A DNA stretch of 64,000 nt. Source: Cenococcum geophilum. Taxonomy: Eukaryota. The stretch lies in NCBI GenBank assembly GCA_050273025.1, contig CP158635.1, forward strand, positions 17,918,001 through 17,982,000. Direction: 5' to 3'. Made by a program: the position numbers and the translations under genes. The notes below the pieces were generated by a model, which was given only the letters and a program-made list of their open reading frames with translations, was not told the DNA's origin and ran no database searches. This document shows, piece by piece, positions 12,187-64,000 of this stretch (positions within the stretch are counted from its first letter, which is position 1; each line of letters starts with the position of its first letter).

Positions 12187-12319
12187 GTTAAATTGGATAT
12201 AGAACGGACAGGCTCCGGAAACTATAGGGATAGGGCTATAGCCTAAGGCAGGACGGGTCCTTAGCCTTTTCACGTACATAGTATAGAGTTAATAGGGCAT
12301 TTTGCTAGAATTGCATTCC

Positions 12320-16228: not shown

Positions 16229-16336
16229 CCATCTCCCTCCTCTTTATCTTTATCCTTAAAGATTCCAAATATCTCTAGGTTATTTACTAGAGGTATAATA
16301 TCCGTCTAATTAATTTAGTTAATATTATTGCTTATT

Positions 16337-23280: not shown

Positions 23281-23324
23281 TTATTCAACTTTTTACACTT
23301 ATTACCATAACTAGGTAGTGATTG

Positions 23325-23748
23325 TATAACGGAACCTTGTAGTAGGTACTACGATAGGCTCGTTAATGGGCTAGGTATATAGGTAAAGTAAGTTAAAGTT
23401 AATAATGTAATAATAACTGGTGGAGTGGTTGCCTAATAGATTAACTCTAATTATATTCTGAGAATTACTACAAGGAAGGAACTATCTAGGTAGGGACTGT
23501 GGTCCTTTAAATACACGACCGTACTTCTATAAAATCCTCCTTATATGTAATATACATACGCTTTATCTGCTCAATTATGGATTATATAGATCCTATAGAT
23601 TATATAGATCATATTATATAACCTCGGTTACTATTTCTTGTCACATAGCTCTACCGGCTCTATCCTAGACCGTGCTTGAATTAACTAACTAGCTTCTTCC
23701 GACTCTTCCCTAAGTAGTCGTAACATCGTACTTAAAGCGTCCGTAACA
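23325..23748 (-). repeat. 5' LTR of Gypsy element 2
   Basis: Ends CCGTAACA on + (TG start on minus), followed by TSD CTAAG. Confidence 0.95.
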
Positions 23749-23799
23749 CTAAGGAAGAAGATTATTAGGCTTAGGTAAAAGGTAATCTAAGGAAATAGT

Positions 23800-26165: not shown

Positions 26166-26856
26166 CCTAGTATAGTTATTATAGAAAGCTTATAAGTTAC
26201 TAGGTCTATTAAGGAATAAAAGGTTTATACTCTCCTTTTTTCCTATATAGTGTTACCTAAAACCTATTACACTATTATATATAATTAGTCTTTAAATCTA
26301 GTACTAGGAGGTAACTGACCCCTAGACGCCCTAGGTGCCTTCTTTTATATTAGGCACTAATTTACTAAAGAAGCCGCTTAATTAAGTCATTTTAGTAGTA
26401 GCTTGCCTTATTTCTAAAGAATAATGCCTTATAAGCTAGCCCTCTCCCTTTTTCGCCTTTATTGTTTTCCTTTTAGATATTTAAGATTATGGCTTCCGTA
26501 GGCAGATTTATTTACCTTACTCTCTTTACTGTAATGGTTTAGATTTATAGGAATCTAAACCCCTCTATTATTAAAATAGGGCTCTTTAGTTAGTTAGTTT
26601 TATTTAACTGCTTTTTATCTTTGGCTTGCGCGATTGGTCTATATATAGGATTACCCTATATCCGTACTCTCTATTTAGTTAATTAGTGTATAGTTTGTAT
26701 TAGCAGTTTCTGTTATATTCTGTACCATTAAGGAGACTAGTTATATTATAATCGCAACCGGGATATATAAAGCCCCTCCGATTTTAGCTATTAGTTTCCT
26801 AATGTATAATATAGTTATATAGCCTTAGTATTAGGCTTTATAGTAATTGTTATAAA
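26166..26856 (-). repeat. Diverged inverted duplicate, copy B
   Basis: Reverse complement of 804-1567, with transitions, transversions and indels. Confidence 0.9.
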
Positions 26857-33077: not shown

Positions 33078-33620
33078 ATGGTAGTAAGGAATCTTGGCGA
33101 GCTTGGTTTCGATACCCCGGCGGGTTTTAACTATACTTTTATATATAACGTAGCTGATGTTAAGTTTAATATAAACCCTTACGGAATGGCAATAAGGAAC
33201 CTTAATAAGCTTAGTTTTGATGCCCCGACGGGTTCTAATAGCGCTTTTATATATAATATAACTGATATTAAGTTTAACATAGACCCTTATGGAATGGCAG
33301 TAAGGAACCTTAACGAGCTTGGTTTTAGTGCCCCTATGGGTTCTAATAGCACTTTTATATATAACGCGGCTAATTTTAAGTTTAATATAAACCCTTATAG
33401 AATAGCAATAAGGAACCTTAACGAGCTCGGTTTTGGTGCCCTAGTGGGCTCTAATAGCGCTTTTATATATAACGCGGCTAATTTTAAGTTTAGTATAGAC
33501 TCTTATAGAATGGCAATAGGGAACCCTAGTAAGCCTAGTTTTAGTGCCCCCGCGGGTTTTAATAGCGCTTTTATAGGCAATGCTATTAGTTTTGATTTTA
33601 ACCTAGGTGGTTATGGTAAC
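33078..33620 (+). repeat. Five tandem 108-bp (36-aa) coding repeats, C-terminal part of an unknown gene
   Basis: Units start at 33078, 33186, 33294, 33402 and 33510; consensus ~MAIRNLNELGFSAPxGSNSAFIYNAANFKFNINPYG. Confidence 0.9.
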
Positions 33621-35469
33621 CTAAATATTAATTAAGGGAGCTTCTTAAGCGGTAAGGAGGAGTGGCAATAATTTTCCTAATAGGTTGCTAGATATAGTGT
33701 TTCAGCTTAATATATAAACTACATTAATATAGTAGGCGGTGTTTTAAGCATAGAGTTTCGTTTAGTGGTGCTTTAATTTTTCTAAGCAATTAAATAAGTT
33801 GAGATTTATAGCGAATTTAAGAGCGCTTCTAAATATAGTGAATAACTATAGCCCTTCCTGCCCTACTAATGGGGTTTAGAGTTAACCTCCTAACCTATCT
33901 ATTATAAAGAATAGTATCTCCCCCATAAGCCTTAATCCTTACTATATTATTTGTTGTCTTACCCTAAAGACTTATATTATAAAGTATATGCCATTTTTGA
34001 GTTAAGTCTCCCCTAAGATAATAACAAATAATTTTAATAACCTCCGTCTTGCTAGTAAGTTCCTCCTAGTCCTTTGACTGCCTAACTATTAAATTAGAAT
34101 CCTTAGGGAACTCTCTATTATTGTAATGGGAGCTTATAAAATTGCCATCGCGAGGTAGACGTAGGGTGCTTAGGATACTTTAAATATACTACTAGCCTAA
34201 AAGGTGTTAGATTATATTATAACTAATATTTATAAAGGAAGCTAAACCGGGTTCTACTTAACCTGCTACCTTAATATTTCTGGCCTTAAGCCTATAGCAT
34301 TTTTTAACACCAATTAGCTATTATCTTTAAGAGTTTGGCGGATAAGAGCTTATATAGAAGGCTAAGAAAGATTTAAGGTATCAGGTTTTTCTATATCTTT
34401 TTTAAGAATTTTAACTTAATAAGAACTTATCTCTAAACAATATGAAAAATGTTGGCGTGGGGTAGTGTAGGATATTGTTCTGCTACTAATGCTAAGAAGT
34501 GCTCTGGACGACGTCGGTGCTTAATATTTTAGTATATAACTGTTAGTGCCTCTAAAAGAGACGAACTATTATTACCGTTATTAAGATTAAGTGAGTGTGT
34601 TCCTGCCAAAATTATTATTAGCTTGCGCTTTTAGCTCTAATAAATTATATATTAGCTTAGTAATAGTCGCTATAGGGAGCCTAAGTAACGCTTTTAGCAT
34701 TTTTACCTGCCTGCTAGCTAGGTTGTCTTATCGCACACTTAGTTGGAAATGGATTAGATATTCTATTAGCATTAGCTAGAGGATAATAGGAGAATTCCTA
34801 AAGTTGATAAGAGAGGAGTTTGGTGTTTAAACCCGATAGAAGGGTGCTTATTTTTAGGTAGGGGATTTGGGTATAAGTTTGCCTTATAATATATAAATTA
34901 GCCTATATAGGGCGTATTACGCCCCGCTTCTATCCTTCCTAGCGCAATACTATAATTTACTTTCTTAGCCTTTATCTATACTGGAGCTTGCTACCTAGCT
35001 CTAGCGGTCTTAAGACTTTATATAGGTTCTATCTGATTAAAGCAGTATACCCGAAGGGAGGATTAGTATAGATAATAAGTGTTATAGCTAGGCCTAGGTT
35101 GAGAAGACTAACTAATTAAGACTAATGGTTTATTAGGGCTTTTATGCATTACTAAAGAATTAAAATATGTCCTGTATGTGGGTAAAAGCCGTTACCTGTT
35201 TGCTCCGATAAATTGTAAATTACAACACTACCTTTTATATAGAAAATGTGGAGATTTAGATACTAATAGCTAATATATAGAGTTATAGATAGAGTAGAGA
35301 TAGAGTAAAGGTAGTTCCTTATTTAATCCTAATTATTAAGCCCCATAACAAAACGAGACTAAAATTTAAAGGTTTAAAGTACGGGCTTTAGGACTATAGG
35401 CGTAACGTCTAAAAGCCTAGTCTAGCCGCTAAGTCTTATAAGGCATAATGACTCTAATTAATAGGTCTA

Positions 35470-42999: not shown

Positions 43000-44163
43000 A
43001 GTGTCGAAGTCTATATCGTCATCCTTTTCAAGCAGTAGCTAAACCACTAGCTTATATATCTTATCTATCAACCCTATTAGCCGCGTATTTAATAAATATA
43101 TTTCTTTTATCTTATGCTAGCCCTCCGCTACCTACCACAATGGCGTTTTACTATATTTATTCTTAGATTTCGCGTCAACGCCGTCCTTAAGCAACAGTTC
43201 TACTACAGTCTTACGTGCCTATTAAGTAGCCCATAAGAGCGGTATCCGACTATAGCTATCCTTAGAATTAGAGTCGACGCCTTTCTATATAAGCAGTAGC
43301 TTTACTATTCCCTTTTATCTACTCTCTATAGCCTATAAGAGTGGAGTCCGACCTTTAATATTAGTAGAGTTTAGGCTAATGCTGTCCTTTATAAGCAGTA
43401 GCTTTACTATTGCCTTATACCCGCGTTCCGTAGCCGCTAATAGCGGCGTTTAATTATGGAAGCCCTTAGGGTTTAGGCTAACACTATCCTACGCGAGTAG
43501 TAGCTTTACTACCCCCTTATACCCATTTATTGCGGCCTATAATAGTGGTATATCTCTAAGAGCGCTTTTAGGATCTAGGTTAACGTTATCCCGCGTAAGT
43601 AGTAGCTCTACTACTGCCTTATTTCTATATTCTGCAGCTAATAATAGTGGCGTAGTCCTAAATTTATCCTTGGAGTTTGGATCGATGTTATCCCGTATAA
43701 GAAGTATCTTTACTACCGCCTTATAACCGTTACTTATAGCTAGTAATAGCGGCGTCCAATTGAAATCGTCTGTCGCTTAGATGTTAGCTTCTACTTCTAG
43801 TAAAATATAAGACTCCGCTTCTTGTCTATATTCTATAGCCTATAATAACGCTAAACTTTTAGAGCGCTATAGTAATTTGTTTATTAACAAAAGCAGTGGC
43901 ATTTCTAGACGAAGAGAGATATGTATATTAGCTCTATACTAGTAGGATCTAAATAAGTAATAGAAATCCGGTAGTAGAAGGCTTACTATCTAAGTAGCTA
44001 GCTATGTGGTAGTATTTAAAGTATATTTTAAGGATATAAGTCCCGTGACTTAAACTGGCAAATATAAGGTAGATTACCCTTTACTGTAGAAGGATTTAAA
44101 ATATGTCTATAGGGGGGGAGGTGGCGTAAGAGGTATTTATTCTATTGGGCTATTGTTACTTAT
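43000..44163 (-). pseudogene. Ankyrin-repeat protein (~7 repeats)
   Basis: 102-bp periodicity (AAGCAGTAGC at 43291 and 43393); translations such as DDFNWTPLLLAISNGYKAVVKILL and KDSYSRIPLLWAT..TVVELLL. Confidence 0.9.
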
Positions 44164-47444: not shown

Positions 47445-47810
47445 GTAGGGTTTGGAAGCATTTGTATGAAGTTATAAACTAGAATCGGAAGTTAATAATG
47501 ACCCCTAATAACGCCTCCCTTAGTAGGAATAGTATTATATAATTTACTTTTAATGCCTGTCCTTTATGGAATAAGACACTACTTAAGCAGTAGACTTACC
47601 CTAGCTAGTTAATCTTGTATATTAACTCCCCATCTATAGTAAAGGAGCTATTAGTGCGCTGCTAAAAGGCTTAGTTAGTATCCTAGCTAAGCCCTTTATA
47701 AATGCCCCGCCTTATATAGGCGGTATAATAACTCCTACTAATCTGCCTTACGCTAAGGGAGGACTTGTATTTAAGGCGCTAAGTAGCTAGTATAGAGGCC
47801 TATAGGCTTA
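47445..47810 (+). repeat. Direct repeat copy A (pairs with ~59133-59500), coding-like
   Basis: Shared blocks such as CTAGCTAAGCCCTTTATAA and CCGCCTTATATAGGCGGTATAATAACTCCTA. Confidence 0.9.
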
Positions 47811-49981
47811 TTTTATATCCTAATAATATTAACTACAATTTCTCTTTAAGTGGTATCCCGAAACCCTAAGTACCTATAAACGTAGCGACCCTAAATTGTT
47901 AGCTAGTAAGTGGGCGTTTATAGATAAAGAAATCGGCTTTAGAGATAGTAACGGCAATATAGAGGCGTTAACTGGTTAAGAGAGTAAATCTAGCGATAAG
48001 GATTAAGAATGGGACGTAGAGATATTATATAGCGGAGAAAATTATTTTAGTACTAAAGGTTAAGAAATATAGGTAGATAGCAATAAAGAGATATTAAGCG
48101 ACGAGGCTATATAGGCGACAATTAAATATGGTGGCCTTGGCTTTATAGTCCTAAATCTATAAGTATAGGATATAAATGCAAAAAAGAGTTCTAATAAAAG
48201 CTAGTAAAAGGGTTAAAACTTTGGCCTTTCTTTGTTTAGCCTATCGCGAAATAAAATAATATTTTACTATTCCTACTAAAGTCTCTACCCGCTTGACTTA
48301 TAGCGAGCTATAAAGTATTCGCGATAATCTATGCCTTCCCTTAGATGAGTTTATTTACTACCTTAAAAGCGATAATGGAATATAAATCTATACTAGTGAC
48401 CTAGGATTTTTTGCATTTTTTATAGACCTGGAATATATACCGCCTTAGTAACTATTAGTCGTGTTTAAGACTACGGTCCTTATAGATTTATACCTTAAGG
48501 ATATAAATATATTATTTTATAGTGTTTTCTTTTTATTTAAGTTATTTCTCTGCTTATTATATATAGTAGTTATTTATCTATTCCGGTATAGTATGGAGGG
48601 GTAGTTAGGTTACGCGAGGGGGCTTAAACTTATAGCTACGCTTATAGGGCTATTTATATAGGGACTTCTTTAAGTATATATAAGGGGGCTTTAAGTCGTT
48701 ATAAAGTTTATAGGAGTTATTATGTGGGAATTTCTTTAATATTTCTAGATCTAGTCTTATATATTTCTTTTATTTCTAGTTTTAGGATCTTTATAAGATT
48801 TACTTCTTATTAATTTAGATTTGCACGTAACGTATAAGGCTTAAATGTAGCGAGGCTAAAGAGGACGCTAGCGCAGAGCTTATCCGTCTTTAACTTGGCT
48901 ATTTATTACGGGTTCTAGATTATTAGTAAAACTGTTTAAATGTTTCTATTAATCCGCTCCGCCTAAATCGCCCATCCGCTGTAAACAAAACTCTCCCCTA
49001 TACGCTCTCCCGTTATTATTATTATCGCTACTATAATATGGCCTAACAGTTACCTAATTATAAATAGCTTTTCCTTAAAGAGTAATATAGACGACAAGAA
49101 GAGCAATACGGATAATAAGAAGAGCAGCGTAGATGGGAGGAGGAGTAGCGTAGATAAGAAGAAGCAGAGCGCGTATAGGAAGAAGTAGAGCGTGTATAGG
49201 AAGAAGCGGAGCGTATATAGGAAGAAGCAGAGCGCGCATAGGAAGAAGAATAATGTAGATGGTAAGAAGTAGAGCGAGCCTAGGAAGAAGCTGAGGGGAA
49301 AACCTATAAGATAACACTACCCAAGTTTCTTAACGCCTATTATACCTATCTCTACTTAGGCCTTACTATTTAAACTAATACGACGTTATTAATATGGGGC
49401 GACCCTACTAATACAAATAATAAGATTTACCCTAAAAGGATTTAAGCATAGGAAGATTTTTTAGTATAGTAGGAAGCTATCTAGAACAACCTTATAGGAT
49501 TAGATTTTATACTAAAACTGTACTTTACTTCGCTATATATATTAGAAGAGTCTAGGAAGGCTATTTACTAGAGGATAATAAGTTCTAAGCTAGACTTAAA
49601 TTACTTTTAGCGCTATACTGTTAAGGACTATATATTATCGATTATTAAATAACTTTATAATAATCCGACACTTTGGCGGAAGTTCCGCCTAAAAGGGTTA
49701 GTAAAGTTTAAAAATTATACTAATACTCTTAGCCCGGAATAGTAAATAAAGAAAGATATATAACGAATAAGTATATCTAGGAACTAGTAACGGTAGTCAC
49801 CCTATCTCTAAGCCCAGGCTAAGCAAATAAAGCCGCTAGACTCGGCTAACCTAGCTAAGCCTGCGGCTGTAGCAATGGTAGAATTAGTAAGATTATCACG
49901 TCTTTATATAGATTAGTTCTGCGTATATAATACTTTTAGTAAGACTTAGAATATAGAGCATTATATTACTACCTTTATTAT

Positions 49982-50159
49982 TGTTGGGAATATAAGCAAG
50001 TTGCCGTTACGTGCGGTAAGTTGCCGTCATATATCGCCGCGGCACTAGTGTGGCGAGGAGCCTTAAGCTCCTCGCCCCCCCTAATGAATACAAAAAGAAG
50101 AACAATTATTATACTATCTACGAACCGTAGCTACGTAATATCACCTTGTGTAACTAACA
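49982..50159 (+). repeat. Copia 5' LTR (178 bp)
   Basis: TGTTGG...CTAACA; two AAGTTGCCGT units. Confidence 0.95.
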
Positions 50160-53100
50160 CTAATTAGTAGTTAACTTTACTGTTATACTACAGAACAGCT
50201 AGGTATTCCACTAAGAAGAGATAAGCCACTATACCAGTACTACTCGTGCTAAAGGAAGCTATCTTTTAAGGTTAGAACTAGTCCTAAACCTTAAATAGAA
50301 CTCTTCTATAAATCTAAGGATTTAAAGGCTAAAACTAGTCCTAAGCCTTTCTAAGATTATAGATTCTTGCGTCTATTACGCAGAACAACACGCTTTATAA
50401 GTCTTCGCGATTTAAGGCTAGAACTAGTCCTAAGCCCTATAACCGCAAATATATATCACGAACGCGTACTAAACAATAAACGCGTACTAAATAATAAATA
50501 TATATTACAAACGCGTACTAAACGACAATCCCTATACTAATAACACTTCCTTCCCTCTAAAAACATAGCTACGCCTACTTTAAATAACTAGAAAGACTCC
50601 TTACTACTAGGGGTAGCTAAGCACACAAAACTTATTGATGAAGATTGGGACGAATTCGCCTTTAATATAATAACTTATACTATAAAACAAGTTAACGGCT
50701 TTCTCCTATACTATATTATATTTTACTAAAATAGATACTATGCCAATTTATAACTATAGGAGTATTTTAGGGAGGATTTTATAGAATGGACTGCTAATAC
50801 CTAGGCACTTAGCAACGTTAATATTGTTTAGGATTTTTAAGACTTCCTCTATAGGAATGGGGTATACGTTACTAAAAACGGTAACCTAATTACAAGCAAT
50901 ATTTAGGCCGTTATTATTAGTATAGAAGAACTAATATAGACGAAAGCTAAGATTATATATTAACTACGGAAACCTAAAAATAACCTATATTCTTTGGAAG
51001 GCAACTTTAATTCATATTAAAACCCCTAGAACGCTAACCCCCCACCTAGAGCTACTCTCCTACCTAGAGGTGCTCTCCCATTTAGAGTTACTCCGCTTTT
51101 ACCTCCTCCACTCTAGCTAACCGGTAAGCCTTTACTACGAGAAGTCACGAATTTAATAAAGGTATATTTGGACGAAGAGAAGAAGTTTAGAGGAGAACTA
51201 TATAACATACTCGGAGCAAAACTATAGGTCTTTTATAACTGTTATAATAAGGTTAAAATTTAACGCCACTAGTACCATTACGCTTTCTCTATTATATTAA
51301 AGGGATAGATAGCAATATTCTATTATAACTATATTACGGGTAAAAACTATAGCTTTAATATAATGCTTTAGCTTACTAAAGCCTACTTTAAGACTAATAA
51401 GAATCGCTAACTTTATATATCCAAATAGCGAGAGACTATATTTTAAAGAGTTATTACTTTTAACCCAATAAAGACTTATTTAGAGTACCTTTAACTACTC
51501 TTTAATAAGCTCTAGAAAATCTAATGTAGCTTTACTAAAACTTACTAAAATAAGAACAGTCTAAGGGACTAGGTTATCTTAGCCTACCGTAGCGTTCCTA
51601 AGTGCAATTTAGTGCTATATAAACCTATAGATACGTTTAAAGGAGTATATACCAAACTACGCTCCGCTATAGGTACTGCAATATAAATATAAGAACCTTA
51701 ATATTTCTATACCAAAAACCCTACCTAATTAAGTATTCCTAACTAATATAATTATAACTGGACTAATTAAATATATAGTGGCCGTAGTAGGGAATACGGA
51801 AGAGAGTACAATTAATGTTAACTATAAGGTAATTATAGAAGTCCTTATAGAGGTTTATTTCAAAGTAATTACTAAAAGAAGTGCTATATTTATAAGAAGC
51901 TAAATTGCTAGTTAACTAGACACTTCCTTAATAAGTAAAAGAAGGTATATAATAAGTTCCGTTAGAGTATAAGAAATGTTAAAAATTACAAGGTTACTAC
52001 GGCCTACTTTTAAAGCTGCCTAGTTTAATATAAAGGCGTAAAAGATCTTAAGGGTAAGGTTAATAAGACCGAACAGCTCCTTATAGATATGGAAATTAAG
52101 GACTACTTACCTAACTAATACTTTACTAAGTATAGTGAGGTAAATAGTACATAAACCGTCACTATTCTTAATAACTAATCTACGCTCCATTCTATTATAA
52201 AGTTAGATATCTTTAATAAGCTAAAGGAGAGCTTTACATTTTCCTTTAATAACAGATACTCGGCGAACGTCTTTTATAGTATTATACCGGATACTAAAGC
52301 CGTAGGAGTATCTATAGTAGGAAAACCTTAAGTTTAAGCCCTTTAGTAGCTTAATAGCTCTGTTTAGATTAACTATTTAACGGCAGGCCAACACATAATT
52401 TGTTTTAGCAAGGGTACTACAACCTCTTTTAGCATAATTAGGGTTTAAACCCCCTTAGAGTATATTGCTTTTTATATTATCCCCACAAATACCCTATTTC
52501 TATTTTATATTAAAGATATAAATAAACTAGGCGTTAAGCTTAATAACCTTAAGAATATACTTATGCAGGGAGATAATCGGGTGCCTATTATATATAAGTA
52601 GGGTCACCCTTAGCTGCTCCTTTAATAACTAGAAAAGAGTGTTGCTTAGATCCATTTAACTAAGTTAGAGTTACGCCAACTATACCATCGTTTTAGTTAC
52701 CTATTAGTTTACCAATTACTTAGGGTTCTTTAGTAAGTAGGCTATAAAGTTAAGGTTAAGGCAATTAAGTATCTTATAAAATACTACTACCACTGCCAAA
52801 TAAACTAGAGGTCCCCTAGCCAATTTAAGTTCACCCTTAAAGATAACTACGACTTTAACTTCTGTATTATCGTTAACGTTATATATCTTAGCAGCAAGCT
52901 AGTACTCTAAGTTATTAATTTCTTAACCTCCTTCTAAGCCGCATAATTCTTAAAGGATATATTAGCTAGGAACGCATGGGATACCCTTTAATTATACTAA
53001 ATTAATATCTACCTAGGACCCCCTAATTAAATTGTCTATAACGTAGGAAAGAACTTCTTATTTATAGAGTTCTGATAATAAATAAAGGCAATAGCAATTA

Positions 53101-55813
53101 AGGTTAAGGAAGTCCCTATTAAGGCATATAATAGTATTAGAAAAGTAGAGCGATATTATACGCCATTACGCCGCGTATATAAGATTATCTCTTTAGAACT
53201 AAAGGACGCTAGTAAAGAACTTACCTTATAAATAGCTATTAAAGCTATTAACAATTCCGCTGGCCCGGATAAACTCATACCTACATTACTAGTCTTTAGC
53301 GCCTACCCACGAATAACTAATAATTCTTTACTATTTCCCTCCGTTATATAATAAGCTAAGGCAATTTATAAGGTAATAAAGGAGGTACAACACCTCTATA
53401 CTACACGCTAGGTTAATAATATACTAAGAATAAGAAATAGCCTAAATACCTTAACTATAATTAATCTGCCACTCTAGTTTAAGGTACGCGTATAGCATAA
53501 AAAGGAAGGATAGTTAGGCCCACATTAACTTATTACAATTAATAGTTAAACTTATACTATTTAGATGCCTTATAGACCCACTTAATTCCGTTTAACTATT
53601 ATTAAGCCTTACTATAAAGATAATAATTTTAAGCCTTTACAGGATGCCCTAGAAGATGCCCTAAAAGAGAACCACAATTAATATACTCTAGAAGGCGACT
53701 ATAATCCCAATATAATTATAGTAGATGCGCTATAACTATAACGCGGTAGAGGTTGCCTAAAGGGATTACGAAATCACTAACATCTTATTAATTTTAAAGA
53801 ATAATTTGTTGCTACTATTAAGAATAGAGTTAAGTTATTAATGGCCTTTATAACAGCTAAAGAGAAGGCTAACTTTAAGCTCGTAAAACAGCTCTAAAAA
53901 GAAGGCTATATTATAACCCTAGGAGCTCCTTTCTAAGTATTTAACAAGTAGGAGATTGACGGTCTTATCGTAAGAGGAGTCTTTAAATTTAAGAAGTATA
54001 ACCCTACTAAGTTTAATAAAGTTCGTATCTTTAAGTTAAGGATAGTTAATAAGATTAAGGGTAAGGCTACTAACGCCCTATTTAAGAAATTAAGGCTTAT
54101 TATTTAAGGTTGTAATAATAATAGTAAGGAGATAATTTTTATATAATCTCCTATAATTTAACAAGCTAGTTAACGAGTTATTATTATATTAGCTCCCTCC
54201 TTAATAAAGAATAGAATAGCGGTCTATTTGCGAGATATTACCTAGGCCTACACCTAATTAGAGACGCACCTTTAGCGCTTAATATTGGCATACCTTCTAG
54301 AGCAAATTTGCCACTAATATCCCGAAGATATAATTATGGTTATGCTTAAGCTATTATATAGAATTGCAGAGGCAGGAACTTATTAGTGGGCTACCTACAG
54401 CAAGCACTATAAAGAGAAGCTTTTAATAACTACATTTATATTTGACCTATACTTCCTTATTATAACTATAGGAACTTTATTTAGAATTGTTGGTATATAA
54501 ACTAATAATATAATTATTTTGGAAGACGACCGATTCTTAGCTCTTAAAGAAGATAAACTAGTAAAGGTAAATCTTATAGTAAAACTAAAGGAAAAGCTTA
54601 ATTTAATAACACCATTACTCTTTAATAAATGTATCCTCTCCCTAAACGAGGATTCTATTGCTTTATGCTAGAAGGGTTAAGGTAAGAAGATCGACGTTAT
54701 TAACGTTAATTCTTTAAAGTAAGGATATGTGGAGCAACGCGCTTATAGAGCTTATGTTACTTTTATCTATTAACCTAAGGCTTTATTTAATCTCTCTATT
54801 ACCACCTAATACCAGGAACTAACTAAGGATAACGTTCTTGCCCTAAATAAACGTCTTTCCTAGTAAATAAACTATCTTAATTAGGGACTACTCTATATAC
54901 CTATTAATCTTCCTACCGCTAAGCTCTTTATATTTATTAATAGATCGTTTATAAATAATAAAGATTTTAGCTCCTAATTAGGATATAAGATTATTATTAT
55001 AAACGAATTTACTAGAGAGAATAACTTTATAATCTACAGCAATCTTATCTATTAAAGCTTAACTAAGAGTAAGTGCGTTATTTAAAGCGTTCTAGCGTTA
55101 GAGATATATAGAATGGTTAGCGGAGTTAATATGGCAATTACAATTGGAACTACCCTAAAGATAATTATAGATTAACTCGTACTTTCTATTATCCCTATAA
55201 TCGTATATACCAATTTATACTCCCTCTATAAGTACCTAGTTAAGCTTAGTACTATAAAGGAAAAGCGCCTTATAATTAATATTATGGCACTTTAATAATC
55301 CTATAAACGGCGAGAACTCTTTAAAATTTAATAAATTAATGGCTAAGATAACCTGGTAGATGTAATAACGAAGGTAAACCTAAATAAGGTACTAGAGACG
55401 TTTATTAACACAAATACTCTACGTATACAAGTTAAAGGTTAGGTTAAAAGGGAGTCCCTAGAAATTTCTTAGTTACGTAAGGTCTTAAGATATCCAGGAA
55501 CTTCGACCGCCGGTTAAAGTTGTCTAATTAGTTAGATTCTGCAGACCCTAACTTAACCTAGCTAATTAGGATTTTCTATCCCCAGGATAGAAAATCGCTA
55601 TTGGCTTGCTTACTACTAGCGCCTTAGCGGCCCTTTAAACAAGATATCTACCTGCGACTCCTAAGTAAGAAAGCACCACGTGCTAAGAGGCAAACTTTTA
55701 GGATAGCGAGACTTATATTATAATGGCAATAGTAAGTAAAGAGAATTGATATTTGTTACACTAGTCGAGCGGTATATATATATAGATGGCAACCGCAAAA
55801 GAAGAGTTGCTAG

Positions 55814-56011
55814 TGTTAGGAATATAGGCAAGTTGCCGTTATGTGCGGCAAGTTGCCGTTATATGCGGTAAGTTGCCGTTACGTGTCGCCGCGGCACTAG
55901 TGTGGCGAGGAGCCTTAAGCTCCTCGCCCCCCCTAATGAATACAAAAAGAAGAACAATTATCATACTATCTACGAACCGTAGCTATATAATATTACCTTG
56001 TATAACTAACA
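55814..56011 (+). repeat. Copia 3' LTR (198 bp)
   Basis: TGTTAG...CTAACA; three AAGTTGCCGT units. Confidence 0.95.
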
Positions 56012-59000
56012 ATTATTAAGTATAAGGCTCCCTATAAACTAACTCTTAGCTATATTTATAAGGGTCTTAATAATATAAAACTTAAGGAAGTAGTCTGCTA
56101 CCGTAAAATCGATAGCCTATAAGACCACTTCCGTTGCCTAGTCGCTGCTATTATTACTTAGGCCTTTTCTTATATGGTTTAGGCTGGACTAGAGTATAGG
56201 TGTATTTACACTAGTAAAGTATTTATTTTTTTGCGAGTGCCCTATAATTCTAAAACGGTTTACTACTTCCTATTTGTCCCTAAGGGTGACGTTAGGGAGA
56301 CGACTAGATAGGCACTAGATTTAGATAGGGGAAATTAATTATATTTAACCGCCATTAGATAGATGCTAGCATTTACCCTTTAGGCGCTAAAGACGCCGCC
56401 TTGGAATTAAAATTGGCGGACTAACGCGGCCGCTTAACTAAAAAGCTAGGAGGTAATCTATAATAATCTACTAGATATAATTCCTGTATATAATGCGCCG
56501 TTATTAAAGTACTAGGCACCTAGGTAAAATGATTTTCTTTATATATTACCTATCTAGCTTTAACCTAGAGTAACGTTAACTAGTCCCCCTTAGTGTCACC
56601 TATCGCAGAATTAGAGTAAGCTTAGTGATGACGAGTTTAATCCTAATACTCCAAGCCGTCTATCTTAGCGGTCTTTACCCTAGCCTTTACCTTAAGCCCT
56701 GGACCCTACTAGCAGATTATTATCTAGTCGCGATTCCCGCCATAGAGGTAAAGGTAGGCAGTATTGCACTTAAAAATGTCTTCTTAGCTTAGTGGAGGGG
56801 GGTTTGCTTAATAAGACGTGTCTAAACGTATAAGATTACGGTGGGAGCCGTTATTGGATTAACTAATCTACCTTCCTTAATCTTATGCGCTAGCAACTTT
56901 TAAAAGATTTAGATACTAATTATAAGCTAATAGGCGTATATAGAATACGCGGGGCTCTACTTAAGGTTAGGTTAACGTTATACGGATATACCCTAGCCGC
57001 AAAATGCACCGTTATTAACTTTGTTGGCCACTTAAATTAGGAGGCCACTATTTACGAGCGCCTTTATCCGATCTAGGGTACATATATACCAGTGTATTTA
57101 GGAAATATCGATTTTAACCGTCCGTATTTCTATAACGGTATTGCGGAGATTGTTTATATAATGTTTCTTAGTTTTAGAAGGAAACTGATCTTTTAACGTA
57201 TTAACGGTAATAATAGGCTATACCTAACAGAATAGGTTAAGCGCTTAATTCGGGCTGTCTATTAACTAGGAGTTTTGTACTAAGATATAATGCCTTATAA
57301 TATGCTTTAGAATATAGAGGTTAGTAAAGCAATAATAATTAACTTTAAATGGGCTGAGGTTTTAAAACCGCGGGCTATACTAGGTGTTATTTTACTAAAT
57401 TAGAAAAGAAAATGGGTACCTAAGGAGGGTCTAAATAAGTAGCCAGGAGGACGTCGTGATAAATTTATACGGGAGATGTAATAGGTAATAGTAGAACACC
57501 GCGGGTTAAAATAGCCGGGGTGTTTACCGTATTAGTAAATTAAATAGTCTTTATAGCCTTTAGACCTAGAAACCCTTATAGGCCCCCTTTTTTTCTATTA
57601 TTTTAAGGACAATGCTATTCTCTACTAGTAAAGAAGACGCTAGTAGACTTATATACGTGATAGTGGAACGTAGTTCTACTTGCTTTAGACGCTAAGCTTA
57701 GTTAAATCTGCTAATTTATTGCTAATTAAGCATATAAATACGGCAAATACTTACTATAAAGGGCGGGGCTATTTAGCTTAAATCTAATATATAAATTTTC
57801 TTTAATAAGTAAACGATATAAGACTAAAGAGCGTACTATTTAAGCTAATAAATTTCCTCCTCAATTCTGTAGACTTCTTTATCCTTAGGCTAAGTATGCC
57901 CTTTTTCTTTTAAATGCCGTGACCTTGTTTCTTGCCTTTGTAACTTATTTATCTCTATAATCTAAAGTTTTATTACTACCTTTTTAAGAGTATAGATTTC
58001 GTTTTAAAGCCACTTAATAGTATCTCTTGTCTCTTTCCAGTTACTTCTTAGGCCGTTAATTTAATTGTTAACCTTCCCTAAATAATTTATAATATAGCGG
58101 TCGCATTTTTTAAAACTGCTAACTCTCCTATTAAGTTGGCTAAGCCTGTAGCTAAGTTAATTAACTAAGCTACTTAGTCTCTTTATTGCCCCTAATAGAG
58201 TAAGCTAGGGGTCGGTAAGCTTTATTAGAAGGAGTTACTAAACGAACTATATTAAGACGACTTCTTTATCTTATTAGTGCGGAGTAAGTATTTCCTTATA
58301 GTTCCTTTTATATTGGCCTTATTATTCTCTAAATTACTCTTACGTTCCGATACTAACTAGGTATCCTACTTGTATTAGTAAGCTAGTGAATGGATAAAAC
58401 TATAGGGAAGCAACTATTGCATACCTGCCCTACTATATTAACGGCCTTATCGGAGCCCTTGGGATGGGAAGTATATAGTATATCCTAGCTCCGTTAGCGG
58501 TATCCTATAAAGGATTTAATATTTAGAGCGCACCTTAGCCTAATATAATATAGTATCCTCTATTATAGCATCTAAGTAGCTTATTATTAAAAAGATAAGG
58601 TAGCTAATAGTTTAAGTATTTACGAGAAAGTAAGAAGGGATTTCTTTAAAGGATACTATACTTAATATAGGTCTAGTTAAAGAATATAAAGGCCTTTTAT
58701 ATCCTGCTCCTCTCTACTACCTAGCTAATAGGAGAGCTAATAGTAGACTTCGCTTTAACTGTGCCTTAAAAGTCGAGCCGATTTATTAACTTAGGGATAC
58801 TAGCATAGTATTACAAATGCGCTATAATACGGCCATAATAGAAGTATAATCCTTTCTATCTATACCCACCTTTGCTATGCCTCTATAGGAGGGTTATATT
58901 AAACGATAAGGACTAGCATTAACCCCTTTCTTCCAATTATTTTAAGATGGCGATATAGAGGCAGCTAGTTAAGCGTTACTTTATACAGTAATACCCATCC

Positions 59001-59132
59001 AGTTGCGTGGCTTTACTTAAGCCCTATTATACGCCTTAATACAACTTTCTGTCGCCTTAATAGCTAACGAGCTAGGCTTAAGGTTAAGATAAGGTAAACA
59101 GGCAACTTAGCTTTTAAATAGCCTTAATAGTA

Positions 59133-59500
59133 TAGGGTTCGGAGGCGTTTGTATAAAATTATAAACTAGAACTGGAAGCTAATAATAACCCCCTAATAAC
59201 GCCTTACCTAGTAGGAATAGTATTATATAATCCACTCCTAACGCCCACCCTTTATAGAGTAGGGTACTGCTTAAGCAGTAGACTTATCTTAGCCAGTTAA
59301 TCTTGTATATTTACTCCCTATCTATAGTAAAGGAGCTATTAATGCGTTATAGGGTGGTTTAATTAGTATTCTAGCTAAGCCCTTTATAAGCGCTCCGCCT
59401 TATATAGGCGGTATAATAACTCCTATTAATCTACCTTGCGTTAAGGGAGGACTTATATTTAAGACACTAAGTAGCCAGTACTTAGGCATATAGACTTATA
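59133..59500 (+). repeat. Direct repeat copy B (pairs with 47445-47810)
   Basis: Colinear with copy A; lies at the end of a coding-like stretch from ~58400. Confidence 0.9.
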
Positions 59501-59799
59501 CCCTTATTTATACATTTTACTGCGTCCTTATTTCTATAAGTAGTCGGTTTACTTTTTACTTATTATTTATCTATTAGAACACTCTACCTTCTCTTTTTTT
59601 ACTAGCCGTTCTGTCTAGTTATTGGCGTTAATCCTCCTCTCCTTTATAGTAACTATTTTAGAATTTACTTTGGATCCTTACTCGTAAAATTAACTATAAA
59701 AAAAAGCTAAACGCACTATTGTAGATTTAAAGCGTCAGTATTAGCCTAAGTACTATTGAACTTCTTAGTCTTTGCTATATGTAAGTACCCTCTAAACTA

Positions 59800-61410
59800 T
59801 AAAATCGCCCTTCTCCATTGTGCTCTTTCTAGGAAAAATTAAAACCCGTGCTTATAATGGTATATTTAAATCTAGTAACACTCTTAAAAGCCTATTAAGC
59901 AGCTTAGATAAGGCCTAATAATAAACGACCTAATAAAGAGGCCGGTATAGGCCTACGAAGATCCTTATATTTTAAGCTAATAATTAAGGAGGAAAGGCTG
60001 AAAGTAGCTTTAAAGCGTAATATACCTACTAAGGATTAGGTTCGTGCCGTCTTATTTAGCTTATAAATAAATATACTTCTTTTTGCCGTTCCCGTCAGCT
60101 TCGTAGTCAATTATCTTTATGTTAATAGTATTACTATATTTATTGTTAACTTTATTGCTATTATTCCGCTTACTATAATGCTTAGTTACGCTATTAAAGA
60201 GATTACGCTCCGTGCTAGTAATATATTAGGTAGTCTTTTAAACGCAACTTTTAGGTACGTTTCTCCGCTTCTTATTTATTCTAATATTATTTAATATTTA
60301 GCGCAGAAACGCTGTTAAATTAATTGTCTCTATCTTAGCCCTAACTAAGGGCCAGATTACTATTATTAAAACTTCCTTAATTAGTAGTATGCTTTTAAAC
60401 TTACTCCTTATCCTTAGTATATACTTCTTCTTTAGAGGTATTAACTGGGTGGAATAACATTTTAATATAATAGTAGTAGGTACTATAGCCAGTCTTCTAG
60501 CTCTATGCATTAGCAGTTTAATTATTCTAACTGCCTTTTACTCTACGCTATTAAGTAAGTTTAATGATAGCTTTAGACCTATAATAAGTACTAACCCACG
60601 CAGCTATAAGCCTTAATAGCTCTATACTTAATCTAGAGCTTTCCTATAGAATAGCTGTTATCCTCCTAATTATATACGTTTGCTACCTTATATTTTAATT
60701 AAAGTTATATACCGAAATATATAATACTCTAAGCTAAAGGGCTCCTAAGCGTAGGTCCTCCTATAAGTAGGGTATACCTCTCTATAGTATTGCATAGATC
60801 GGCGCTGGAGCGCCGGCTATATTTGGAGGCGGAGTAAACCAAGAACAGCCTATGCAGGATTTAAATGTAGAAAAGGAAAATAACGAGATTAAGGAGCCCT
60901 AATTAACGATCTGGGGTGTAATTATAACCCTTAAAATCTCTACCGCGTTAGTCGCCTTCTGTTCCGAGTTTATAGTTAATAATATTAGTAATATTACGGT
61001 AAGCGGCACTATCTCTACTACTTTTGTTAGTCTTATTCTACTCCTAATTATTAGGAACGCTGCTAAGTATATAATAGCGGTTATAGTAGCTTATAAGGAT
61101 AAAATAAATCTAGTAATTAATATTACTATTAGATCTAGTATACAAATTACTTTTTTAGTTCTCCTATTTATTATTATACTTAGTTAGATTATAGGCCAGG
61201 ATTATATAACGCTTTATTTTAATACCTTTCTAATCGCTATTTTGTTTATTGCCATACTCCTAGTAAATTATTTTATCTAAGATAGCAAATCTAGTAAGTT
61301 TTTCTTTCTATATAGGTAATCTACTATAACTAATACTAAAATAGACTGGCTTAAAGGCGTTCTTATTATAGCAATCTATACTATTATTACAGTTGCTAGC
61401 TAGTTTTATT
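59800..61410 (+). pseudogene. vcx1: Vacuolar Ca2+/H+ exchanger (CAX/VCX1 family), intron-containing
   Basis: NFIAIIPL..LLNATF[GTACGT..CAG intron]NAVKLIV (alpha-1 GNAxE motif); SLISSMLLNLLL; LLLIIRNAAKY (alpha-2 GNAAEH); SNWLKG split by an intron near 61295-61343. Ends approximate. Confidence 0.92.
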
Positions 61411-62524
61411 AAGTTTTAGATTTTTTTTATCCTACTTAGTTTAAGCCTCTAATTAATATCTTACTCCTCTATTAGTGTCGACTAGTTTCTATTACCTAGA
61501 GCTAAATAGGATTTTTATAAACTGTGTGTATAGCTTTCTAGCAAACCCTAGGTTAATCTTCTTATATCTGTTAAGCCGTCTAAGTTACCTAGAATGTTGC
61601 TTTCTTTTATTTTCTTTTAAAAAAAAAATTATATTTATATCCCTTTTCTTTTATATATATATATAGATTGTGTCTTATTATATTATTCTCTACTACTTAA
61701 ACCCTCTTGCATATTTATTATACCTATAATAGTATAAGAGTATTGCTACTATTAACAAATTAATACGTCTAATATGTAGGATAGGTAACTATATGCAGAA
61801 TTTCTAAAGTGCAAAAACTGGAAGCCGATTTATAAGCGACTATCCCTTAAGCTGGTATATATAGGGCTGTAAGGCCAAGGTGGCATAAGCTAAAGGCGTA
61901 AAGCGAGATCTATAGGACCTTTAAAGTCTAAGGGGAAGATATTCTAGAACCTGGAATAAGAACTATAAGGCGTTTAAGGCCGTTAGAATACGAAGTAGAT
62001 AAGAGTAAGAGAGGCGATCCGCTTATTTAGGCGGTATATATTTATGTTAAATTATAAGGCTAGTTTTAGCTGCGTTATAAATCCGCTTTTCTTTTTAATA
62101 TATATTTAAGTTTGCTAGCTTACTAGTAATTAAAATTTCTATAAAGAACTAGATAAGTAATAAACGTTATATATAAGCTGTTTGCTTATTATAGGCGACA
62201 AGTAAATGCTAAATGGACGGTAAATAGGTAGTAATACTAATGCCTTTCGCTATAAAGAGGACCTTATTATAGACTCTCGCGGCTAAGTTACCCCCTATCT
62301 CTCTTACTTCCCTTACTGCTCCTTCTAATTAAGAATTCTTTTTAAAGGAAAACTTCTTAATATAATATAATCTATTACTAAAGAGAGAAGGAGCTACCTA
62401 TTACTACCTTCCTTCTTCCCTTCTTTTCTTCCCTTTTTTTTCGCTTGTTATCTTAAATATAGAGATAGTAATAACAATGCGTTCCCCTTGCGATATATAC
62501 TAGTAAAGGGGGAGTCCGCGTATA

Positions 62525-64000
62525 TTAGTAAGATACTCTATACGTATTAGATATATATCTTTTAAAATATATTATGCTATTTAGCTTAATAGAATATTTA
62601 GGGTGGCGATATTAAAACTCTCTCTAATATTTAGGGAGTTAAAAGTGGGTTTCCACGTACTTCTTTAGGACGTCTTTTCGCGGTATATAGCGCATCCGTT
62701 TTTTGTATAAGAACTCGTTATTGCCTATATAAATAAGGTATACTAGGTAGGAAAGCTCTATAGGATATAACTAAATAGTCTTGGCTTTAGCGGCGTCTAA
62801 AGTGCCAAGCTCTTATTAAATAGTCCCACAATATTTATTATCCGGCGACTCTTCCTTTAGGGACGCATAATTAGGAGTTTGGTAATTTAAGGTACTTTTA
62901 AGACTGATATTCTTTCGCTTTTGCATATAAGATATTTTCTTATTTTTAAAAACAATGAAGTCTATTTTCTTCCGTTTTGAAGGTTTACGTTAAGCTGTTT
63001 CTTCTTAATAATATAGTTAAGCTAGGTTTTCGATGAACTTAACCTAGGCTTTTTTATTTTTAAAAGGTGTAAAGAGTATTCTAGTAATAGTAGCCCGCTC
63101 TAGAAGTTCAAATTCCTACCTTAGCAGTGTTAATACCTTAGTTAGGCCCTTCCTACTAAGCTAACTGGCTATTTCAATCGTGTCGATTAAGTCGTAAAAT
63201 TTGCGAATAGCAGTTATTAATCGTTCCCTCTGTAACCTTTAATACGTTATACCAATATTCCGCTTAGTCTCTTTATATTACTAGTATAATTTAGTACCTT
63301 TGACCTTAGTAACGAGGTAGAGGCCTTTATTATAGATAAGGTTCTTATATTCTTTTCGTTTATTATAAAGCGCTTTAAGCTTAGGGTTATTACGGACTTC
63401 TTCTAGCTAGTTATTATTGAGCTCTATAGGCGCTTGTCGATTTCATAACAGCCCCATTCTCGCGATAGATTTAATAAGGAGATCCTATAAAGGACTTCTA
63501 AAATAGATACTCTGGTAATTGCGTGCAATATGCGTTAGTATATAATACCTCTTATACGTACTACTAAGATGGCCTATAGTCTGGTTCCGCTCTTTTGGAG
63601 TAATAGCGTCTATCTATATAATTAATATATAACCAGGTTTAGAGGTAATTATTAAGTAGTTCTACCGTTAATGTTTTTACCTAAAGCCCGTCGCAGCTAG
63701 TACAGCTCTAGTGCCTTCTTAACCCTAGCAATAAGCCCTAGGCGTATAAATATATTATAGTATTTAGCGTATAGAAAGGCCTTTTCTTTTATAATATTGC
63801 CACCCCTAGTTATATAGCTGACGTTACAGAAAAATAGTTAATCTAGTACTTCGTCCTGCGCCAGTACCTTAAGGTTGAAGATGTTTTAAATACTTATAAA
63901 GTTATTTCGGAATACGTTTTAACTAACGCTAATAGCTAAAATATGCGAAATAATATAGAATGTAGGAAGGTCTTCTAGACGGAAGGTAAATTTCTTTTTA
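62525..64000 (-). pseudogene. DUF3435 tyrosine recombinase (Starship captain), 3' part; 5' end beyond the window
   Basis: FTFRLEDL..IISHILAI; LELY*LRRALGKNIN[intron 63610-63665]DAITPKERNQTIGH..TYKRYY..IARNYQSIYF..RMGL..RQAPIEL; C-terminal degenerate CxxC/H..CxHPxC..HFKRH zinc finger at ~62530-62760. Confidence 0.88.

Follow-up and report, generated by a model that had tools for sequence, protein, structure and literature searches.

Remains of a Spok-family gene beside a Starship captain-type recombinase in RIP-mutated DNA of Cenococcum geophilum

The locus described here raises the question of whether a dead Spok-family gene and a dead recombinase of the Starship-captain type are remains of one mobile element or chance neighbors. 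Both lie near the end of a 64-kb stretch of Cenococcum geophilum DNA from contig CP158635.1 (hereafter the window, with positions numbered from its first base), which a preliminary description had read as a fossil drive-carrying Starship. The locus is a dead example of an already described kind of element and not a new system; published accounts already describe Starships that carry Spok genes, Spok blocks in decay and Starships degraded by RIP (PMC8092012, PMC9156397, PMC12693581). Beyond Podospora and Fusarium, it is one more instance in which a Spok-family gene neighbors a Starship-type recombinase, and it displays the end of such a gene pair through transposon insertion and RIP.

Organization of the locus

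The features considered are listed from left to right, with the evidence for each in parentheses.

43.0-43.9 kb: ankyrin-repeat pseudogene (Ank_2, E 2e-30)
47,446-47,854, plus strand: direct repeat of ~400 bp, first copy (self-comparison)
49,038-49,981, plus strand: Spok-family pseudogene, 5' part (BLASTP to homolog residues 34-276, E 2e-82; alignment)
49,982-56,011: LTR-type insertion in the Spok gene (paired LTRs, TG..CA ends, target duplication)
56,017-57,514, plus strand: Spok-family pseudogene, 3' part (BLASTP to homolog residues 278-774, 65% identity; DNA alignment)
57,888-58,350, minus strand: small coiled-coil gene remnant (phmmer; tblastn coordinates)
59,133-59,544, plus strand: direct repeat, second copy, between the Spok gene and the recombinase
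60,040-61,420, plus strand: Ca2+/H+ exchanger (Na_Ca_ex) pseudogene (Pfam PF01699, in three frames)
62,525-64,000, minus strand: DUF3435 tyrosine recombinase pseudogene, captain-type (Pfam PF11917, homolog alignments, intron, tree)

The Spok-family pseudogene

The plus-strand gene is recovered in two pieces, 49,038-49,979 and 56,018-57,511, which align by BLASTP to residues 34-276 and 278-774 respectively of the same 774-aa homolog (P0009). The 6,030-bp insertion between them has LTRs at approximately 49,982-50,160 and 55,814-56,011 that are 92% alike and have TG..CA ends, with a 5-bp target duplication, ATTAT, at 49,977-49,981 and 56,012-56,016. Taking out the element together with one ATTAT brings back the reading frame as a single 2,442-nt frame, a multiple of three that is collinear with the 774-aa homologs, and the DNA alignment to the closest relative (L008) picks up again 2 nt past the break. 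A search of all six frames of the insertion gave no Pfam match to a reverse transcriptase or integrase at E<=1, and heavy RIP may hide them.

The preliminary description had called this gene complete. It is full length, with its ATG exactly at 49,038 and its native TAG stop codon at 57,512-57,514, but it is split by the LTR element and carries 66 internal in-frame stops, 32 in the 5' part and 34 in the 3' part. With the stops, the split coding sequence and mutations at E278, H698, R699 and D719, this copy is dead. It once encoded a Spok-family protein of ~813 aa that opened with an N-terminal coiled coil and continued with a PD-(D/E)XK-type domain, a Cys/His cluster and an atypical kinase. The 5' part runs from the ATG through a variable EEAER coiled-coil repeat and the N-terminal domain to the Asp of D..ExK, and the 3' part continues with ExK, QxxxY, an unstructured linker, the Cys cluster and the kinase-like domain to the native stop. 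The EEAER-type repeats differ in length across alignment columns 20-100, the window copy included, and in the predicted model one helix spans residues 8-61 (pLDDT ~90).

At the predicted nuclease, D254, E278, K280 and Q325xxxY329 are invariant in 15 intact homologs, and K280 and Q325 are so in 76; the window copy keeps the Asp, while ExK now reads KYK (E>K) and QxxxY reads stop-AFSY. A PD-(D/E)XK domain with QxxxY is accordingly predicted at the level of motifs. The cluster C527-x3-C531-x13-C545-x5-H551 is invariant in the 15 homologs, where the next conserved His is H556 (x4), and the window copy retains the three Cys and has Tyr for H551. Among the kinase residues, K606, E619, H698, D700, N705 and D719 are invariant in the 15 intact homologs; where homologs have an invariant H698-R-D700, N705 and D719-F720, the window copy reads Y-stop-D and N-F.

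The C-terminal domain gives weak Pfam matches to Kdo, Pkinase and APH, matches PDB kinases by sequence (CaMK1, E 1.5e-6) and resembles Rio2 in fold (Z 13.8, rmsd 3.3, 161 residues aligned). The fold model is that of the 774-aa homolog, built from 76 sequences with a mean pLDDT of 77, and its Foldseek and VIA-align lists contain only kinases, which match residues 555-774; a structure from the 15-sequence alignment was unusable (mean pLDDT 34.6).

Homologs of the gene number 91 (best E 8e-206), and 88 of them carry PF27653.1, a family named SPOK2_N in the database, as do 119 of the 120 matches listed of 549 in a search with a Xylaria member; the literature search found no paper under the identifier PF27653. 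Membership of the window gene in SPOK2_N comes via homology, through 65% identity and full-length collinearity with proteins bearing PF27653. The architecture, the motifs and the SPOK2_N label on its homologs bear out the Spok-like identity first proposed, and this comparison of sequences supports placing the plus-strand gene in the Spok family. With homolog E-values reaching 8e-206 here and 4e-151 for the recombinase, the identities of the two genes are not due to chance.

The captain-type recombinase

The profile search that the preliminary description had proposed as a check on the minus-strand gene returns a PF11917 (DUF3435) match at approximately 63,068-63,604 (E 2.8e-15, 56.6 bits, against a cut-off of 25.8), with a second at 63,664-63,951 (E 0.039). 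PF11917 is likewise carried by all 47 recombinase homologs (best E 4e-151), several of which are named C2H2-type, and with this the claim of a DUF3435-like recombinase holds. BLASTP against an 815-aa homolog (P0115) places window positions 63,996 down to 62,528 on residues 370-815; the window contains the 3' 446 codons, or 55% of the gene, and ~369 codons lie beyond base 64,000. The coding sequence is joined from two frames by a 56-nt GT..AG intron (63,610-63,665), contains 22 in-frame stops and ends at a TAA stop codon at 62,525-62,527. The LRR, GH and RYY motifs and the C-terminal C2H2 zinc finger are readable in the minus-strand translation and all visible in the alignment, as had been described from the letters, and in the finger Cys and His are changed to Tyr. 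The DUF3435 domain by which a Starship captain is recognized is present (PF11917), and the evidence supports a DUF3435 protein of the Starship-captain type.

The captains of Sanctuary (Bipolaris sorokiniana) and Frontier (Alternaria ventricosa) belong to the same protein family, with 44-47% identity to the RIP-damaged window copy over 67% of the query, and have in common with it a C2H2 finger at the C terminus and active-site stretches with LRR, GH and YY. A quick tree pairs the window recombinase with a 350-aa fragment (P0101; SH-aLRT 100), outside a 17-member clade that includes P0117 and P0103; this placement comes from a short search with a branch lengthened by RIP. P0103 comes from Alternaria ventricosa, is almost identical to a Bipolaris sorokiniana protein and lies on a 90,444-bp contig, in agreement with the 90.4-kb Frontier scaffold given in the published accounts (PMC11857905, PMC12506042); solely from the organism and this agreement in length, we infer that P0103 is the Frontier captain. 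A relationship between the window recombinase and Sanctuary/Frontier-type captains is evident from its sequence.

RIP and the decay of the locus

RIP composition is found in all 32 of the 2-kb bins of the window (TpA/ApT 1.46-1.92), and only four ORFs of at least 60 aa are present in 45-64 kb. The Spok gene differs from its closest DNA relative at 707 positions, 465 of which are C>T or G>A changes (212 in CpA/TpG context) and only 101 run in the opposite direction; identity rises from 70.1% to 89.8% once the C>T and G>A changes are ignored. X occurs at 71 positions of the two alignment rows, made up of the 66 internal stops, the native stop and four beyond the gene end. Of these, 57 stand opposite Q (37), R (15) or W (5) in the homologs, with 12 in gap columns. 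The stops, the composition and the scarcity of ORFs agree with the initial reading that RIP killed both genes and left them invisible to ORF calling. Stop density does not separate coding from non-coding frames, and there are no Rfam matches across the window.

An LTR retrotransposon hit the Spok gene next to its ExK motif, and in the proposed course of events RIP then riddled the gene and its surroundings with C>T and G>A changes. The outcome is a dead locus in a RIP-mutated, AT-rich region, with nothing left able to move, kill or protect. Pfam run on stop-read-through frames missed both the Spok kinase and any retrotransposon pol, so that Pfam blanks in this DNA carry little weight. RIP-dead genes are fully recoverable by reading through stops and removing the nested insertion, and where gene callers see nothing in AT-rich regions such recovery offers a marker of past Starship and drive activity.

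Relationship between the two genes

The two genes converge, with 5.0 kb between the Spok stop (57,514) and that of the recombinase (62,525), in keeping with the spacing of about 5 kb noted at the outset, and the orientation of the recombinase fits a Spok gene on the captain's cargo side. Membership of both genes in a single Starship, which the preliminary description had also claimed, did not find such agreement. No Starship boundary is visible in the 64-kb window, the captain start and the 5' edge lying beyond base 64,000. A Starship-like region, as Gluck-Thaler and colleagues reportedly put it in 2022, combines DUF3435 with DUF3723, ferric reductase, patatin-like or NLR genes. No Pfam match to DUF3723, ferric reductase (FRE), patatin (PLP) or NACHT is found in the frames scanned (six frames at 49-64 kb, plus frames at 34-49 kb, minus frames at 41.5-47.5 kb, and 16 segments), which amount to about half of the window's frames and in which Pfam is weak on RIP-mutated DNA; the plus frames at 34-49 kb gave no Pfam match of any kind. 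Apart from the ankyrin repeats, the 16 low-stop segments gave just two Pfam matches, La (0.026) and SSO6904 (0.047), both weak and at chance level.

The different cargo set that had been proposed comes down to three pseudogenes that may have been cargo. The exchanger, which we take to be VCX1-like, lies between the second ~400-bp repeat and the recombinase, with PF01699 matched at 60,921-61,400 (E 1e-8) and its N-terminal half read by eye in the printed frames. The small coiled-coil remnant lies tail to tail with the Spok gene; phmmer against 1.84 billion representatives gives seven matches (best E 1.8e-21), its relatives are hypothetical proteins of 72-221 aa, and tblastn finds it at none of 60 metagenome loci with a related Spok gene. 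The third is the ankyrin-repeat pseudogene, upstream of which Pfam gives no NACHT match. These non-transposon genes are RIP-mutated as well, in line with an earlier duplication of a large block, and the element would have been present in two or more copies and hence a target of RIP; RIP leakage from nearby repeats could also mutate single-copy genes in the absence of a duplicated block.

We regard the case for the Spok gene, recombinase, exchanger, small coiled-coil gene and ankyrin gene being cargo or parts of one Starship or Starship-like element as evenly balanced. The fuller reading, a wrecked Starship of a Dothideomycete-type lineage with a Sanctuary/Frontier-related captain and, aboard it, a Spok toxin-antidote gene whose intact relatives still circulate, is put forward tentatively, at somewhat below an even chance. 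Intact Spok relatives do occur on metagenome contigs, with ~90% DNA identity when RIP changes are set aside. If the fuller reading is true, Spok-type drive or addiction would have ridden on Starships of the captain group that moves the virulence gene ToxA among cereal pathogens. Spok homologs are reported to be frequent Starship cargo (PMC12693581).

Alternative explanations

The two pseudogenes may have arrived separately in a repeat-rich, RIP-prone compartment, the recombinase then being either a captain that stands alone or has decayed, or the leading gene of another element that never carried the Spok gene. This is a distinct possibility, if short of probable. None of the 60 related Spok loci has a captain-lineage DUF3435 gene in its available flanks (765 kb in total; tblastn with 12 captains and an HMM of 14 captains, the latter recovering the window's own recombinase at 1e-99), and DNA likeness between these loci and the window ends at the coding sequence. 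The window is moreover packed with LTR-type repeat pairs (5,786/14,494; 15,804/23,324; 49,982/55,814), a ~400-bp repeat copy lies between the two genes, and in Fusarium 33 of 408 Spok homologs are reported inside known Starships, leaving 375 outside (PMC12693581). Against chance stand the fitting orientation of the captain and the distance of only 5 kb, and RIP mutation of the adjacent non-transposon genes comes more easily with a large block once duplicated. Starships are also reported to average ~110 kb (PMC12693581), so little can be read into other Spok genes lacking a captain within 10 kb.

A second alternative concerns what the Spok gene did before its death. The PD-(D/E)XK-type domain of Podospora SPOK3 is the killing part and the kinase the resistance part. 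The window gene may have served as a Spok-family toxin-antidote gene of vegetative cells, for instance keeping an accessory region in place, and not as a meiotic spore killer; we consider this vegetative role less likely than not. Fusarium Spok homologs are described as toxin and antidote in yeast and proposed to stabilize accessory chromosomes (PMC12693581), and a 2026 preprint reports that a Starship-borne spok lowers chromosome loss (10.64898/2026.10.04.756499). The sequence itself reads the same for a vegetative as for a meiotic mode, and the presence of RIP means that the lineage has passed through sexual cycles, so meiotic drive would have been possible.

Movement of the Spok gene, independently of the recombinase, in a small composite unit bounded by the ~400-bp repeats (47,446 to 59,133, ~5.7 kb before the LTR insertion) is very improbable: the copies share one orientation, bracket the gene at distances of 1.2 kb (upstream) and 1.6 kb (downstream), and are 84% alike with mostly transitions between them, but neither the single copies nor the pair have a target duplication, their ends are not clearly TG..CA, neither repeat nor flanks lie beside any of the 60 related Spok loci, and a pair of solo copies from a single repeat family is commonplace in such DNA.

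Comparison with known Spok genes and Starships

The window gene has the part order published for the Podospora SPOKs (Spok1-4), with the variable coiled-coil repeat first, followed by D..ExK, QxxxY, the Cys/His cluster and a Kdo/RIO-like kinase with catalytic Asp (PMC6660238), and like them it has a coding region without an intron. The features published for SPOK3 are the catalytic Lys K240 of PD-(D/E)XK, QxxxY and the kinase catalytic Asp D667, and the SPOK Cys cluster is given as C-x3-C-x13-C-x5-H-x7-H (PMC6660238); the last His is thus at x7 in the Podospora SPOKs and at x4 in the window-gene homologs. In its decay the window copy resembles SpokPsi1, which is described as carrying numerous stops and being interrupted in its coding region by a transposon (PMC6660238), and as lying within a decayed Enterprise (PMC8092012). 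The inserted element is of LTR type in the window copy and Tc1/mariner in SpokPsi1, and the window copy, unlike SpokPsi1, keeps its 5' end.

A DUF3435 recombinase with a zinc finger near a Spok gene is likewise found in Enterprise of Podospora and in Arwing and others of Fusarium, and the window captain is oriented toward the Spok gene as in the Spok-carrying Starships Enterprise and Arwing. Unlike in the captains of Spok-carrying Starships, no chromodomain is seen in the window recombinase, and its protein ends with the C2H2 finger. RIP-degraded copies with ~30% GC are reported for the Melanconium Enterprise (PMC8092012).

Distribution of the Spok relatives

Among the matches listed, the nearest Spok relatives are mostly from Dothideomycetes, with a few from Xylaria, Diaporthe, Emmonsia, Penicillium and lichen fungi, and the 120 matches listed of 549 in the search from a Xylaria member include no Podospora protein. 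One Spok-family member is 93% identical at the protein level between Xylaria and Bimuria records, a degree of similarity that hints at horizontal movement.

A Spok-family gene split by a nested insertion

Two pseudogenes lie at the right end of the window, among further gene remnants and repeats.

Features of the window (coordinates, strand, description)
804–1,565 with 26,168–26,856: 760-bp inverted pair, 25 kb apart
5,786–14,710: direct repeat pair with LTR-retrotransposon spacing (8.7 kb spacing, 90% alike)
15,804–23,749: direct repeat pair with LTR-retrotransposon spacing (7.5 kb spacing, 90% alike)
43,000–43,900, minus: ankyrin-repeat pseudogene (Pfam Ank_2 E 2e-30, Ank E 3e-27)
47,446–47,854 and 59,133–59,544, direct: ~400-bp direct repeat pair, 84% alike
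49,038–57,514, plus: Spok-family pseudogene
49,982–56,011: LTR-type element within the Spok gene, terminal repeats 92% alike, TG..CA ends
57,888–58,350, minus: small coiled-coil gene remnant, homologous to hypothetical proteins of 72–221 aa
60,040–61,420, plus: Ca2+/H+ exchanger pseudogene (Pfam Na_Ca_ex E 1e-8)
62,525–64,000, minus: DUF3435 recombinase (captain) pseudogene

The Spok gene has its ATG at 49,038, the start given in the preliminary description; after it come MA-QLPNYK and a series of EEAER-type repeats, and a kinase-like stretch lies ~8 kb downstream of the start in a different frame. The LTR-type element within it has an ATTAT target duplication (49,977–81 and 56,012–16), and once the element and one ATTAT are removed the frames fuse into a single one whose length, 2,442 nt, is divisible by three. 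For all protein-level analyses frames were translated through stops, with X placed at each stop. A search with the 3' piece found 91 proteins (best E 8e-206), mostly 750–820 aa in length. The 5' piece corresponds to residues 34–276 of the 774-aa homolog P0009 and the 3' piece to residues 278–774, and the codon split by the insertion encodes Ile, as in the homologs at position 277 (bases read by eye). DNA likeness to L008, a metagenome contig carrying a Spok relative, ends at 49,981 and restarts at 56,019, with two bases intervening in both sequences. Given this two-piece collinearity and the resumption of DNA likeness past the insertion, the gene is, as read from the sequence, complete in content yet split by a nested insertion. 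Its earlier description as complete thus holds for its content, which is full and collinear with the homologs, and fails for its integrity, as it is interrupted by the LTR element and carries 66 internal stops (32 in the 5' piece and 34 in the 3' piece).

The architecture and motifs support assignment of this gene to the Spok family. In the description of SPOK3 by Vogan et al. 2019 (PMC6660238), a repeat of variable length makes up the N-terminal coiled coil, K240 and a QxxxY motif mark the PD-(D/E)XK domain, Cys and His residues form a cluster of the pattern C-x3-C-x13-C-x5-H-x7-H, and D667 is the catalytic residue of the kinase. Among 15 intact homologs D254, E278, K280, Q325, Y329, C527, C531, C545 and H551 are invariant, as are K606, E619, H698, D700, N705 and D719, and most of the residues matching SPOK3 are still invariant among 76 homologs; the sole differing feature is the last cluster His, which is at x4 spacing in the homologs but x7 in SPOK3. 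Pfam family PF27653.1, named SPOK2_N in the Atlas output, is present in 88 of the 91 homologs. The C-terminal kinase part matches PDB kinases in sequence, and its predicted model (mean pLDDT 77) matches Rio2 best (Z 13.8, rmsd 3.3, 161 aligned); both fold-search lists are filled by kinases, and the nuclease assignment is at the level of motifs. For SPOK3, HHpred gave an HsdR-like match for this domain. No Podospora sequences are among the matches listed in the Spok homolog searches.

RIP damage

The entire 64-kb window is AT-rich (GC 0.28–0.38 in 2-kb bins), with no Rfam matches, and there are only four ORFs of at least 60 aa within 45–64 kb, bearing out the view that the locus is invisible to ORF-based annotation. 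The Spok gene is 70.1% identical in DNA to L008, rising to 89.8% when C>T and G>A changes are ignored, and its GC is 0.361 vs 0.526 in L008. The 707 differences comprise 465 C>T or G>A changes (212 in CpA/TpG and 132 in CpG contexts), 101 reverse changes, and 141 transversions. In two alignment rows there are 71 X positions (66 at internal stops, one at the native stop, and four past the gene end), at which the homologs have Gln in 37, Arg in 15 and Trp in five (57 in total), gap columns in 12, and Glu and Gly in one each. Frameshifts are absent from both the Spok gene and the recombinase. Judged by this mutational signature, it is RIP that killed the Spok gene, as had been proposed. Conserved residues are lost in the window copy, with E278 replaced by Lys, Q325 and R699 by stops, H551 and H698 by Tyr, and D719 by Asn.

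A captain pseudogene at the window end

The preliminary description reported a minus-strand DUF3435-like recombinase with LRR, GH and RYY stretches and a C-terminal zinc finger, and a Pfam search matches PF11917 (DUF3435) on the minus strand at ~63,068–63,604 (E 2.8e-15; 56.6 bits vs a cut-off of 25.8), with a second match in a different frame at 63,664–63,951 (E 0.039). The two frames are connected by a 56-nt GT..AG intron at 63,610–63,665, which rules out a frameshift between them. PF11917 is present in all 47 proteins found by a word-indexed search with the X-read translation of 62,003–63,604; several are named as C2H2-type domain proteins, and the organisms are mostly Pleosporales. In alignment with the 815-aa homolog P0115, residue 370 corresponds to 63,996 and the last residue to 62,528, next to a TAA stop codon at 62,525–62,527. 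The captain reported within 49,038–64,000 is therefore present but cut off by the window end; only its 3' portion is covered, with ~369 first codons beyond base 64,000. The LRR, GH and RYY stretches are visible in the translation, and the finger is present with Cys and His changed to Tyr, the type of change expected of RIP. There are 22 in-frame stops, 19 of them in aligned columns, where 11 correspond to Gln in homologs. The initial observation is thus confirmed with two corrections, an incomplete captain in the window and a Spok gene split by a nested LTR element.

In a quick tree, made by a short search and with a long RIP branch for the window copy, the closest partner of the recombinase is the 350-aa fragment P0101 (SH-aLRT 100; 72% identity), and it adjoins, rather than falls within, a starred clade of 17 containing P0117 from Bipolaris sorokiniana and P0103 from Alternaria ventricosa. 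These two proteins are near-identical over their aligned part, and P0103 is located on a 90,444-bp contig. The Frontier captain is reported on a 90.4-kb scaffold with 98.1% identity to the Sanctuary captain (PMC11857905, PMC12506042), and we infer that P0103 fits the published Frontier captain and P0117 the Sanctuary captain. In Sanctuary the captain begins ~350 bp from the 5' edge of the element (PMC12506042).

Neighbouring genes and repeats

The stretch from the Spok gene to the recombinase contains the non-transposon exchanger pseudogene, which is RIP-mutated and read in three frames, probably with introns. The small coiled-coil gene has only seven relatives in 1.84 billion representatives, with KRKRARL-type tails and the named ones from Zopfia rhizophila and Elasticomyces elasticus, and it is absent beside 60 other Spok loci. 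The ankyrin pseudogene has ~100-bp internal periodicity at 43,150–43,760 by self-alignment, and a Pfam search upstream for a NACHT or other N-terminal domain found none; the gene may have been an NLR, one of the usual accessory genes of Starships. The window's left side, with its paired repeats, resembles a set of nested retrotransposons. Four 108-bp units, 74–79% alike, form a tandem array at 33,050–33,616 on the plus strand within a long low-stop frame (32,256–33,782; 17 stops in 509 codons); the frame reads as a 36-residue protein repeat and has no Pfam match.

One Starship or separate neighbours

Whether the recombinase and the Spok gene are parts of one element is, in our estimate, an even call. 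The captain reads toward lower coordinates and its orientation puts the Spok gene on the cargo side, 5.0 kb from the captain stop and in agreement with the ~5 kb first noted, which favours a single element. RIP has also mutated the non-transposon exchanger, small coiled-coil and ankyrin-repeat genes, as would be expected of a large block formerly present twice, and this too favours a single element; RIP in itself implies a former second copy. The Melanconium Enterprise copies, at ~30% GC, are a comparable RIP-degraded case (PMC8092012).

Several observations count against this. The Pfam-scanned parts of the window have no matches to DUF3723, FRE, PLP or NACHT. The ~400-bp repeats, which differ mostly by transitions, flank the Spok gene 1.2 kb upstream and 1.6 kb downstream, so that one copy lies between the two genes and the other upstream of the Spok gene; the copies are without target duplications or clear LTR ends. 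Window likeness to 60 metagenome loci with Spok relatives (765 kb in total) ends at the coding sequence, and in the flanks covered none of the 60 has a DUF3435 gene belonging to the captain lineage seen here, a result limited to this lineage, as a more distant captain family could escape detection. With Starships averaging ~110 kb (PMC12693581), this argues that the 5-kb spacing is not conserved, and not that Spok genes lack captains. The initial interpretation as a drive-carrying Starship is thus supported in the identities of captain and Spok-family gene, while their union in a single element stands at about one chance in two.

Relationship to known Spok loci

Spok genes are carried on Enterprise (PMC8092012), and homologs are reported on "numerous other elements"; many genomes contain pseudogenised copies, and of 408 Fusarium homologs, 33 are inside known Starships (PMC12693581). 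Spok3 and the FuSpoks have been assayed for toxin and antidote activity in yeast (PMC12693581), and a 2026 preprint describes a functional spok on a Fusarium oxysporum Starship (10.64898/2026.10.04.756499). Podospora SpokPsi1 belongs to a decayed Spok block, and its coding region contains numerous stops and an inserted transposon (PMC6660238, PMC8092012), as does that of the window Spok gene. The window locus is a further wreck of this SpokPsi1 or degraded-Starship sort, with gene and captain both of a different lineage.

Among the matches listed, a Spok-family protein of Xylaria polymorpha (Sordariomycetes; P0039) is 93% identical to one of Bimuria novae-zelandiae (Pleosporales, Dothideomycetes; P0035), and 88% identical to others attributed by name to Corynespora, Amniculicola and Diaporthe. 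This pattern contradicts the species relationships and suggests either recent horizontal movement or mislabelled DNA; the same discordance has been reported for closer Spok homologs (Vogan et al. 2019, PMC6660238). Metagenome contig L023 carries two Spok-family copies (3,610–5,591 and 10,039–12,186) ~6 kb apart, an arrangement resembling genomes with multiple Spok homologs.
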